Source: a virus (Duplodnaviria; Heunggongvirae; Uroviricota; Caudoviricetes). From it: 21,866 nucleotides of DNA. The DNA is taken from positions 1 through 21,866 of IMG/VR virus record IMGVR_UViG_2541047936_000002; one strand, given 5' to 3'. Position 1 is the first letter of the stretch. Each line of letters starts with the position of its first letter. Of the stretch, positions 12,001-15,000 are shown piece after piece. The position numbers are program-made.

Positions 12001-15000
12001 TCTCGGTTTTGATGACAGTCACGTTGTGACAATGCCGGAACTGTGCTGGTGGCTGGTTCGTAATAATCTGGCGGATGCCTTACCGGAAAGCGCAGCCCGT
12101 AAGGCACTGAGATTACCGAATCCTGTTGTGCCGTCTGTCACCCGGGAAAGTGACCTTGTGCCTTCGGTTCCTGCCACCAGCATCATCCAGGATAAGGCGA
12201 AAAAGGTGCTGGCGCTGAAAGTGGATCCGGAGTCGCCGGAGTCTTTTATGTTACGCCCAAAACGTCGCCGCTGGGTTAATGAAAAGTACACGCGCTGGGT
12301 TAAGACACAGCCGTGCGCATGTTGTGGAAAGCCTGCTGATGATCCCCACCACCTGATAGGCCACGGTCAGGGGGGAATGGGTACAAAAGCGCATGACCTC
12401 TTTGTGTTGCCTTTGTGCAGAAAGCATCACGACGAGCTGCATGCGGATACCGTGGCATTTGAAGAGAAGTATGGCTCCCAGCTGGAGCTGATATTTCGTT
12501 TTATCGATCGCGCGCTGGCAACTGGCGTGCTGGCCTGATTTTGTGGATAAAGTTTATGCGTGATATTCAGATGGTTCTGGATCGTTGGGGTGCATGGGCG
12601 GCGAGTGATAGTTCTGGGGTAGACTATTCGCCTATAGCTGCTGGGTTTAAAGGGCTTCTTCCCTATACAAGCAAAACACGTCAGGCTTGTTCAGATAGTG
12701 ATGCATTAATTATTGAAGGTTGTCTTGCTCGTCTAAAGCAAAAAAGACCTGAAGAACACTCGCTTCTTGTTGCCCATTACCTATACGGTATCTCTAAAAG
12801 AAAGCTCGCCAAAGCTCGTAAAAAGGATGAGAAACTAATACGCATTGAGATACAGATGGCTGAGGGTTTTGTTGAAGGCTGTCTCTCAATGCTTGATCTT
12901 TGTCTGGAAATGGACCAATAGACTACCAGAATAGAAACTGCCGCTCAGCTTTGCGGATCGGCAGTTTCTGATGGTGTAATGTTACGCGCAGATGTTTCGA
13001 GTATAGATTCCCTTCCGATTGATACCAAAATTTCGATTGTTCTTGCTTTAGCCTGCATCAATGTTGATTTTATTTCAGGACTTAAGTGGTCAGATCGTAA
13101 CTGCTTCTCAATCTCAGCCAAATCACGCTTGCATTTTGCTCTTTTGGCTGCGTCCTCTGGAGATTCGAAACCATGCCTCGAAATAAACCAATTCATGACG
13201 TAAGTTAAAGTTGCCGCAACACCCGGTACCAATGCGTAGGCTACAGTTCGCCACACGCTATTAGGGTCGGTTAAAATCGCGCTAACAAGAACACTTAGAA
13301 TTGCTCCCCAGCCACCAGTTGAAAGGGTAGCTTTTCCTGTACTTAGACCTTTAGTTTGAGAATTCATTTTCGTTTTGAATTCTCCGCAATTGCCTCTTCA
13401 ATGAGGGTTGTTAGCATTTTTCCCTTTTTACTTGGAACTTTTATTACTAGCGTCTTAGTCACTCCGGATTCTTCATCGTGATATCGGAATTCGAAGACTT
13501 TTGTAGGGAATAGTCGACGCCAAAGCAAGGCTGACGCTGAATAGCAAAAACGACTAAAGGCAGGGATGATCATTATCACCCCAATCCAGAAGATCAGTTG
13601 TGCTATCTGCATGTTCAGTGTCACTTTTGTCAAGCCTCAGCAGGGCGTTTTCGTTTTACTTTGGTTATAGCATACTTGGTTGTGGCATTTCGCGCAGTGA
13701 AAGTTTTTATAGTTTTTAGCTCAACAACAAACAAATCTTCTTTTGTAAAACTGATGATTCCATTTTGAACTTGGTGTATAAACAACTGATCTTCAAATGT
13801 AACAGCATGCTCCTCGCCTAAATAATCGATTCTCCAACCCTTTGTACCCTCGAAGTTGATCTGTACGAATCTAACATTGACTTCTTCTACAGACTCTTCT
13901 TTTTCAAGTAGTGTACCTCTAGGCAGCGGTTTGATCTCTTCAGTTTCACTTCCTTCAAGACGAACGACTTCTTCGCCTTCATCATTTAGCACCTTAAATA
14001 CTGCACCTTGTTTGCCGTCTAATGGTGCACGAACTACATTCACAAGGGCATCACGGACTTCAGGATCTGTTACTAACTTAGCCACTGAGTCATGGCAAAC
14101 AATTTCTTCCCCTTCAAGTTCAAGAACAGATTCTTCTGTTCCTGCCCGTTTTGTTACCGAAATTACTTTCTTGCTGCCCAGTTGGCGGATTAGTGATAAT
14201 GCTGGAGCTCCAATAGCAGCCCCGGCTATCCCTGTTAGGCCAATCACTTTTGCGACGTCGACGGCATGAGGAACAAGCTCCATCATCGTATAGGATACGC
14301 CGAGTGATCCCGCTTCTGCTGGATTAGTAACCATTAACTTAACGGTTTGTTGACCGTCATTAAGTCTTTTATCAGCTGCTGATATTAAATCTGCCATCGA
14401 ACCTATGGAGATGCTTAATGTTTTGGCATCAATTTTATGCTGTGCTAATTCGTTATCCTCTGCATCGTAGAAGATCTGAAAAGAAGTTGTTTTAGTCACT
14501 CTTTGCTCGCTATGTCTTGACTTTTTTCCATAAAATACCTTTTTTGGGTATAAAAAACATTATCGCGGTCCGCAAAAATTGCGTTACTGTGTTAAGAGTG
14601 GTTACTTCGCCACACAGCTTAAACCCGCCGTCGAGCGGTTTTTTTGTACCTGTAAACCTGGTGCAGTACAGTAAACACGCTGGTGGCGGTGAATACCTGT
14701 CTTTCAGCTTGCTGGCTTTTTCGACAAGAGTTATTGGTATGTCATGTCAACCAGAAGGGAAAAAGACATGCTAAAACAGCAAGATATGACAGAAACCGCC
14801 GCCGCAGTCCTTCATTTCTTACCTGCTGACAAGTGGGTAACGCCACGCATGATGACGAGAACTACAGGAGTAAGCGAAGCCCGGTGCCAGTTAATACTGA
14901 CTCAGTTAGTTCTGGCGGGTCTGGCGAAGGATAACGGCGGGTACGGGAATAAATTCAGACGCTGCCAGTAATGGCGGTTTCCTGCTGTGAAAATGGGCGG

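Follow-up and report, generated by a model that had tools for sequence, protein, structure and literature searches.

A Q antiterminator gene probably split from its late control unit by a reversed accessory module in an Escherichia coli prophage

Introduction

The stretch of DNA examined here (the window, 21,866 nucleotides, positions 1 to 21,866 of IMG/VR virus record IMGVR_UViG_2541047936_000002) lies in an Escherichia coli lambdoid prophage. It probably carries a late-control cassette of the Q21/Q933W/QuuD type in which the gene for the antiterminator Q and the target of Q are split by a 1.64-kb accessory module. The Q gene (12556-12921, plus strand) is followed by a hairpin (12932-12969) and by three reversed genes (12945-14499), an order that a first-pass annotation of the same DNA had already described. 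The predicted late control unit, which was located by comparison with relatives, lies at about 14550-14645 and begins ~1.63 kb past the Q stop codon.

By analogy with phage 21 and lambda, the late promoter of such a cassette would fire in the lysogen and its transcript would then terminate at tR'. Once the prophage is induced, Q expressed from the early rightward transcript would bind a dyad in the late control unit, load onto RNA polymerase near the start site and carry the polymerase through the terminator. The reversed cargo, which lies upstream of pR', would stay outside the late operon and be expressed on its own in the lysogen; in lytic growth it would be traversed in the antisense direction by early rightward transcription.

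We tentatively put forward a combination of three proposals that seems to us quite possible: that, in lambdoid prophages with Q21/Q933W/QuuD-type antiterminators, the few base pairs from the end of Q to its binding site are a major, undescribed cargo and defence hotspot in which the cargo is nearly always reversed, that the Q-binding element (QBE) of this subfamily is a short dyad co-evolving with Q, unlike the direct repeat of Q21, and that the defence candidate PDC-S42 is a three-gene membrane module.

Results

The comparison set comprised ~220 related loci overall. Scanning viral contigs with a 17-mer core of the late element gave at least 120 loci, which together with the window, Sakai Sp5 and a small number of other related loci make up 126 oriented sequences; a Q gene lies upstream of the core in 101 of these, at a distance of 3-44 bp in ~10 loci and of 620-2,459 bp in the remainder. 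Because this first sample had been ascertained with the core itself, a second was drawn via the Q protein, yielding at least 80 loci whose Q is at least 73% identical to that of the window. The late element was located in 69 of 80 such loci, one spurious hit having been removed. Counts on the anatomy of the unit refer to 54 unique elements from this Q-ascertained sample, and the profile of its A-rich tract to 47 unique relatives.

The antiterminator belongs to a known family. Its product matches PF06530 over the full profile (E 1.9e-52), which is its sole Q-family hit, and PHROG 79 ('anti-termination protein Q-like'). It is also annotated in RefSeq at the identical locus, from the ATG at 12556; the longest open reading frame (ORF) starts at a TTG and spans 12541-12921. 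PF06530 has been assigned to the Q21/Q933W family by Yin, Kaelber and Ebright, and the solved Q21 chains (6P18/6JNX) match the window Q weakly (E 5e-4). The first-pass label of a Q82/QuuD-type protein is therefore only half retained: ~50% identity supports the QuuD part, and the Q82 part was rejected because of the family assignment by Yin et al. and the PDB match to Q21. The window Q is 48-53% identical to the Q proteins of Shiga toxin (Stx) phages and to QuuD of DLP12, with ~50% for QuuD (434B recombinant; 51% in alignment) and 48-49% for Q933W-type Q; it is 88% identical to the Q of phage cdtI. The phage 434B record was discarded as a separate comparison, having only re-found the DLP12 region acquired by recombination.

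What places the target beyond the cargo is the arrangement in relatives whose site is empty. In MA11, whose Q is 74% identical and which carries no cargo, ATTAGTGCGGTCCGCAAAAAGTATGTCAGTATGTTAAGAGTGGTTACTTTGCCACACAGCTTAAATCCGCCGTCAGGCGGGTTTTTT begins 10 bp past the Q stop codon, and a nearly identical sequence is found in the window at 14560-14645; MA11-type prophages have the Q stop 10 bp from ATTAGTGCGGTCCGC, followed by the same core. Empty-site relatives as a group end Q 10-40 bp from this conserved element and thus have a late promoter directly downstream of Q, an adjacency that is lost in the window. In phage cdtI the late element comes after a different reversed two-gene insert. The first-pass proposal that cargo lies between Q and its target is borne out by this synteny, as relatives without the insert exist (MA11; 16 of 69 Q-ascertained loci), and comparison with the related loci places the native late control unit at about 14550-14645.

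The unit opens with an A-rich tract and a TTA motif, ATAAAAAACATTATC (14550-14564, plus strand), upstream of the dyad. The tract spans about -46..-38 relative to the inferred start; whatever the cargo, it is A-rich at -46..-41 in 50-90% of the relatives, and the T at -36 is invariant. It is a possible UP-like element combined with a weak -35 of the late promoter. The -10 hexamer of pR' would be TACTGT (14585-14590, plus strand, -12..-7). TAnnnT occurs in 54/54 elements: the A in second and the T in sixth position persist across 14 hexamer variants, and such conservation amid variation is, judged from sequence, what a functional sigma-70 -10 element would show. The A-tract may compensate for a poor -35. 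TACTGT aligns with the near-consensus TATCAT of Sakai Sp5 and Sp15, which stands 7 nt before the start implied by their PR' RNA.

The transcription start is placed, within a few nt, at position 14597 (plus strand), the A of TAAG[A]G. In the Sakai Stx phages PR' has been mapped by differential RNA-seq (dRNA-seq) and Term-seq, and the PR'-tR' RNA is 258 nt long (Sy et al. 2020). The Sakai coordinates of that study are not directly usable, the genome version being different, and the reported length was used instead: a distance of exactly 258 nt separates the A of GATAAG[A]GTGG from the final T of the tR' T-run in Sp5 and Sp15 alike. Because this homologous A fits the 258-nt RNA, we infer a start near A14597 in the window, a call that is accurate to a few nt at best.

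Over the start site lies a box, TAAGAGTGG (14593-14601), which together with a small 5' hairpin occupies 14593-14613 on the plus strand. Positions -4..+6 are invariant and the box is unchanged across Q clusters, an invariance that is partly by construction, as TAAGAGTG served to locate the elements. The TAAGAGTG/TAAGAGTGG box resembles the sigma-dependent pause element (SDPE) of phage 21, TAAGCTG (1375-1381 of our locus L236), but sits at about -4..+4; it is possibly a pause element. A different pause element, at +6..+12 (TTACTT/TACTTC), was considered and rejected, its TAnnnT not being kept in relatives. The 5-bp hairpin is predicted at +2..+17 (14598-14613, GUGGU/GCCAC) in the window, Sp5 and MA11. 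One relative (GTGATTACTTCGTCAC) has a compensatory change from GG/CC to GA/UC in it, and other variants break the pairing.

The unit ends in a putative intrinsic terminator, tR' (CCCGCC-GTCGAG-CGG and T7; 14624-14645, plus strand; scan hit 14627-14639), which lies shortly past the start and would end an RNA of ~49 nt. A hairpin and T-run are found at the same place in 44/54 unique relatives under strict rules, with very different stem sequences. In the consensus scan the numbers of promoter-like and terminator-like sites in the whole region are not above those of shuffles, and the meaning we attach to the hairpin and T-run at 14624-14645 arises only from the comparison with relatives.

The first-pass annotation had looked for the late promoter further to the left, in TTGACT (14517-14522) and TATAAA (14549-14554), with the GC hairpin and T7 downstream; the conserved block to the right of the hexamers would then be only leader and terminator. 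All of these sequences are present, and TTGACT is a good -35. The annotation had itself called this promoter weak, rightly so: the hexamers are separated by a 26-bp spacer, no sigma-70-like site was called in 14500-14600, and the pair is no better than chance. TTGACT is moreover not conserved in close cassette relatives, which have TTGATT, TTTGAT, GCTATT or TTTAAT in its place, and the DNA that holds the hexamers is missing from relatives with an empty site, in which the coding sequence of Q runs right up to the unit, and differs in every other cargo class. The hexamers are thus cargo-specific and variable, and the conserved TAnnnT and the start mapping in Sp5 place the promoter in the conserved unit, 40-80 bp further right. 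The chance that the pair is the late promoter appears to us close to negligible.

It also could be argued that the conserved block is a small-RNA (sRNA) gene, or a terminator closing the early (Q) transcript, and not a Q-responsive promoter. The block would yield a short structured RNA, its hairpin and T-run could stop readthrough from upstream, and an RNA derived from PR' of an Stx phage does act as an sRNA, StxS (Sy et al. 2020). There is, however, no match to an Rfam family in 12400-15200 (scan at E up to 1), and the TAnnnT at a fixed distance from the start, the mapping of PR' in Sp5 and the layout of phage 21 all indicate a promoter. A role as sRNA would in any case add to Q control and not replace it. 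We therefore consider this explanation very unlikely and keep to a Q-responsive late promoter.

Within the promoter, the dyad GCGGTCCGC (14565-14573, plus strand, -32..-24) is the candidate Q-binding element. It is exact in 51/54 unique elements beside a window-type Q, and the adjoining spacer varies freely. Grouping of the Q proteins at 80% identity gives eight clusters, each of which has its own dyad-symmetric sequence at a constant distance from the core: GCGGTCCGC goes with the window type and the MA11 type, GCGTACGC with cluster 2, TTTACG(N2)CGTAAA with QuuD/Q933, TGTTATAACA with cluster 4, TGGAATTCCA with cluster 5, ATTCGT-T-ACGAAT with cluster 6 and GCGGGCCGC with cluster 7; TTTACGnnCGTAAA and ATTCGTTACGAAT also are among the dyads of other Q clusters. 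The dyad occupies the same position in the -35/-10 spacer as the annotated QBE of phage 21. Because it stays constant within a Q type but changes from one type to another, and lies in the promoter spacer, it is a candidate QBE, and we think this assignment rather more probable than the opposite. The covariation of dyad and Q is modestly new.

Alternatively, the dyad might be another operator, or part of a leftward promoter or of a terminator of the cargo, and Q might read a different sequence such as TAAGAGTGG. In favour of this, the QBE of Q21 is a direct repeat (ATTGAGCA/AATGAGCA), the invariant TAAGAGTGG box is common to all Q clusters, and the reverse complement of the ATTATC beside the window dyad is GATAAT, a good leftward -10. 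However, the dyad is also present in cargo-free phages, which means that it is not part of the cargo, and it changes with the Q cluster, as a specificity determinant should, whereas the box does not. A precedent for recognition of a dyad exists in 82Q, which is thought to bind its QBE as a dimer. In Sp5, finally, the dyad shares bases with the Q stop codon and contains the -35, TTTACG, which is where a QBE would be expected. On balance a role for the dyad other than Q binding seems unlikely.

Further phages bear on how Q and its target travel. Ayreon, SfV, mEp460 and Stx2c phages have the same DUF968 gene and the same downstream small ORF/methylase, but an unrelated Q of 250 amino acids (aa), and this Q has a different downstream control region. 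That Q and control region both differ between otherwise similar phages implies that a Q gene is exchanged along with its target, the two forming a single module.

The gap between the two seems to be a place where cargo is swapped repeatedly. In the Q-ascertained sample 16 of 69 loci are empty (gap of at most 40 bp) and 53 carry 0.7-2.25 kb of cargo. The empty sites adjoin Q proteins 73-75% identical to the window Q, and some cargo is present in every one of the 52 sampled contigs with a Q at least 80% identical to that of the window. From this uniform occupancy we conclude that the site is a standing, recurrent exchange hotspot. The first-pass idea of an insertion thus holds as far as cargo at the site is concerned, and fails as a one-off event; its further suggestion of a known moron site agrees with the finding that the genes are absent from syntenic relatives or replaced at exactly this site by unrelated ones. 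Both samples pooled contain at least 36 cargo classes at the DNA level, with a GC content of 0.31-0.43, and in 35 of them the main ORF runs opposite to Q. The cargo is probably swapped by recombination in the conserved flanks.

The contents of the site are diverse. They include the porin gene nmpC, which lies between quuD and essD in DLP12; the validated defence system Kiwa, with KwaB (E 2e-150) and a membrane partner; a PDC-S20 KAP NTPase (E 2e-176); a protein with a weak NYN-like match (E 5e-4); DUF6731 proteins, each with a membrane protein, which make up five DNA classes of one protein family; and two NA37-type proteins. Several recurrent pairs consist of a ~310-aa protein and a ~150-aa membrane protein and have no PADLOC match. 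The sole same-strand class, found at five loci, encodes a 214-aa protein with no family match and goes with the Q-cluster dyad TGTTATAACA.

A shared property is a strong fold next to Q. Of 34 distinct Q-stop-proximal 70-mers from cargo-bearing relatives, 31 fold at -15 kcal/mol or below, with a mean of -19.2 kcal/mol for the 70-mers against -10.7 for shuffles, and their sequences are unrelated. In the window the interval of 23 bp between Q and cargo is occupied by the hairpin at 12932-12969 (both strands), which stands between the convergent genes and overlaps the stop codon of the last cargo gene. It has a 12-bp stem and folding energies of -25.1 (plus strand) and -23.7 (minus strand) kcal/mol (z-score about -4.9; none of 200 shuffles is as stable). 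This hairpin is likely a bidirectional terminator brought in with the cargo.

The arrangement as such has long been known from nmpC in DLP12, and the size of the hotspot is modestly new. No description of the Q-adjacent site as a defence hotspot was found in the literature searched, which is weak evidence of novelty; a search on nmpC/ipeX/PA-2 found nothing relevant, and neither the Tai paper nor that of Vassallo et al. describes the Q-to-promoter site.

The cargo of the window consists of three reversed genes on the minus strand. Gene 1 (13630-14499) is predicted to encode a 289-aa PDC-S42/LAPAL protein, which matches the PADLOC profile PDC-S42 (PDLC05015) over residues 4-287 of 289 (E 8.8e-33) and NCBIfam NF053583, 'LAPAL motif-containing putative phage structural protein' (E 8.2e-60), and also hits a PHROG of unknown function; a fold search with it gave only OB-fold-like domain hits. 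Gene 2 (13364-13633; 89 aa) has an N-terminal membrane helix and a TTG start that overlaps the stop of gene 1 (TTGA). It is absent from the RefSeq annotation of the identical locus. It is, as judged from conservation, an intact 85-89-aa ORF with conserved motifs and 40-76% identity in four other cassette classes, and its counterparts are called as genes of 80-85 aa in Klebsiella, Edwardsiella and integrase-adjacent copies. Gene 3 (12945-13367; 140 aa), identified as an ORF whose ATG overlaps the stop of gene 2 (ATGA), has two predicted membrane helices and a C-terminal helical region, and its product has no above-threshold hit in Pfam, NCBIfam, PADLOC or PHROGs.

The 'S' in the PADLOC label we take to imply a single-gene system. 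This is not what was found here: the PDC-S42 gene is always followed by two small membrane-protein genes, down to 37% identity, and the trio keeps its order in five DNA classes, down to 40-52% aa identity. The supposed single-gene candidate is therefore predicted to be a three-gene membrane-associated module. PDC-S42 is not mentioned in the literature searched. In the 21 viral contigs that carry the cassette it always lies directly after a window-type Q, and the same trio is reversed after Q in Klebsiella and Edwardsiella prophages. A trio with 37% identity (294, 80 and 131 aa) stands beside a tyrosine integrase with no Q nearby (L233, 3122-5528; L234, 2552-4958), which implies that the module is mobile in its own right. 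This integrase-adjacent trio is preceded by a 288-aa gene, maybe a paralogue.

Upstream of the cargo genes, the segment 14500-14549 (no strand assigned) is cargo-specific and variable among cassettes; it contains TTGACT and the first base of TATAAA and presumably holds the cargo's own leftward promoter. No such promoter was located, the scan calling no consensus promoter at 14500-14600 on either strand. A leftward promoter that uses GATAAT, the complement of the ATTATC at 14559-14564, was dropped as a general feature, as its key A is not conserved across cargo classes. The strong hairpin at the other end is, as described above, general to cargo modules. The cargo has a GC content of 0.37-0.48, against 0.51-0.59 in the DUF968/DnaB region, and that of Q itself is 0.42-0.45.

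A further possibility is that the three reversed genes are ancestral phage genes, for instance for a structural protein, and were never inserted as cargo. The NCBIfam family is named 'putative phage structural protein', the cassette always occupies this site in viral contigs, all 52 contigs with a close Q have some cargo, and the same module is at the site in Klebsiella and Edwardsiella prophages. Against this stand at least 35 unrelated alternatives at the site, among them known defence systems and a porin, and the empty sites beside Q proteins 73-75% identical. The module is encoded on the opposite strand, stands apart from the late operon and has its own terminator hairpin; the 37%-identical trio beside an integrase has no Q nearby; and two of the three products are small membrane proteins, which are not suggestive of virion parts. 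We regard ancestral phage genes as highly improbable and continue to treat the module as cargo.

The segment 12300-15300 is 100% identical to E. coli strain 2015C-3163, and a search of 5,426 complete E. coli genomes found at least 80% of it in 30. From left to right a DnaB helicase gene, a small ORF and a gene for a DUF968/YdfU protein (11543-12538) precede Q. The first gene past the late control unit encodes a small phrog_331 protein (14768-14971, plus strand; E 2.9e-26) and is a RefSeq coding sequence at the identical locus. In relatives it precedes a DNA methyltransferase gene, and it has the same place in MA11, cdtI, SfV and Ayreon.

Discussion

A number of points weigh against the reading proposed here. 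Both candidates for the -35, TTATCG (19-bp spacer) and TCGCGG (16-bp spacer), are poor, and the consensus promoter scan called no promoter at the late unit. The start was transferred, via a reported RNA length, from a homologue whose Q is 48% identical, and Sp5 and Sp15 share the early hairpin and T7, yet their reported PR' RNA is 258 nt long. The TAAGAGTG box covers the inferred start and is not at +2..+8 as in phage 21, and no convincing conserved -10-like pause element (TAnnnT) was seen downstream of +1 in relatives. Many loci were found by means of the core (-5 to +12), so that it looks more conserved than it is. As for the dyad, the QBE of Q21 is a direct repeat, the case for the dyad as QBE is made from covariation and position, and the covariation with Q could partly reflect tight linkage of the two. 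Finally, the late region of the window itself is deleted from ~15793-15798 on, and lysis, head and tail genes are missing.

This deletion deserves closer description. The window is collinear with the prophage of 2015C-3163 only to 15798, inside the DNA methyltransferase gene, whose ORF (15122-15841) has 239 aa against ~350 aa in relatives. From ~15793 it matches a prophage distal end, with an N-terminal fragment of a tail fibre, Ail/Lom (15977-16636) and NleG (16866-17435); just past the NleG gene, on the opposite strand, is an ORF of 1,128 aa (17613-20999, minus strand), annotated DUF4765 in matching genomes. Among the complete E. coli genomes searched, none spans both sides of the junction at 15793-15798. 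Relatives have holin and lysin genes downstream of the unit, which the window lacks, and the prophage is thus a deletion remnant. Given this loss of late genes, the control unit in the window is probably a relic.

The analysis has practical consequences for annotation. Across this large group of enterobacterial prophages, the place to look for the late promoter is not immediately behind Q but at a recognisable unit of dyad, TAnnnT, TAAGAGTGG and terminator, which may be 0.6-2.5 kb away from the gene. Through its covariation with Q, the dyad becomes a testable candidate for what determines the specificity of Q933W/QuuD-type antiterminators, the proteins that control Shiga toxin expression. The Q-to-promoter site also can serve as a compact, easily scanned reservoir of small, mostly uncharacterised modules. 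The near-universal reversed orientation of the cargo suggests a rule by which prophage genes expressed in the lysogen are carried without disturbing late transcription.

Comparison with known systems

The closest known layout is that of DLP12 (qsr'), in which quuD is followed by the reversed porin gene nmpC, a late control element and the lysis genes essD-rrrD. As in the window, a Q of the same Pfam family is directly followed by opposite-strand cargo, then by the core TGTTAAGAGTGGTTACTTCG.CACACAGCTTAAACCCGCCGTCGAGCGGG-Tn and the late genes, and the gaps are of similar length (1685 bp in DLP12, 1669 bp in the window). DLP12 differs in that its cargo is a porin, not the three-gene PDC-S42 module, and has its own long AT-rich upstream region, and in its dyad, TTTACGTACGTAAA, which matches the QuuD/Q933 cluster. 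Phage PA-2 with lc we take to resemble the DLP12 layout.

The late control region of phage 21 has been defined by structural and genetic work. The Q of this phage falls in the Pfam family of the window Q by the assignment of Yin et al., and direct comparison of the sequences gives a weak match. In the record of phage 21 the -35 lies 7 nt past the Q stop codon, the QBE (ATTGAGCA and AATGAGCA) is in the -35/-10 spacer, the pause element TAAGCTG is at +2..+8 and the terminator at +3..+50. Phage 21 thus agrees with the window in the order and scale of its parts, in having a terminator that ends a ~50-nt RNA and in a TAAG-containing box near the start. Unlike the window, it has no cargo, and its promoter begins 7 nt past the Q stop. 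Its -35 is the consensus TTGACA, a direct repeat makes up its QBE, and its pause element is at +2..+8, whereas the similar box of the window is at about -4..+4.

The Stx phages (933W, Sakai Sp5 and Sp15), whose Q is 48% identical, have a homologous promoter, dyad and core (TTTACGATCGTAAA ... TATCAT ... GATAAGAGTGGTTAC) and the same first hairpin and T7. In Sp5 (L128, 820-905) and Sp15 (L237, 580-665) the Q stop codon lies inside the dyad TTTACGATCGTAAA, and the GC hairpin with T7 is at ~+28..+55. They differ from the window in having no cargo between Q and promoter; their accessory genes (tRNAs, stx) follow the promoter in sense orientation and are controlled by Q. The PR' RNA of Stx phages ends at a second terminator, at +258 (Sy et al. 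2020), and a very short PR' RNA (~50 nt) may exist in them that is missed by standard RNA-seq.

The defence and moron hotspots of temperate phages, such as those of P2 and P4 (Rousset 2022; Vassallo 2022), resemble the Q site in that a fixed locus flanked by conserved phage genes holds many alternative small systems, most of them uncharacterised and some validated as defences (Kiwa in the case of the Q site). The Q site is set apart from them by belonging to a different phage group, by splitting a regulator from its DNA target and by carrying cargo that is almost always reversed.

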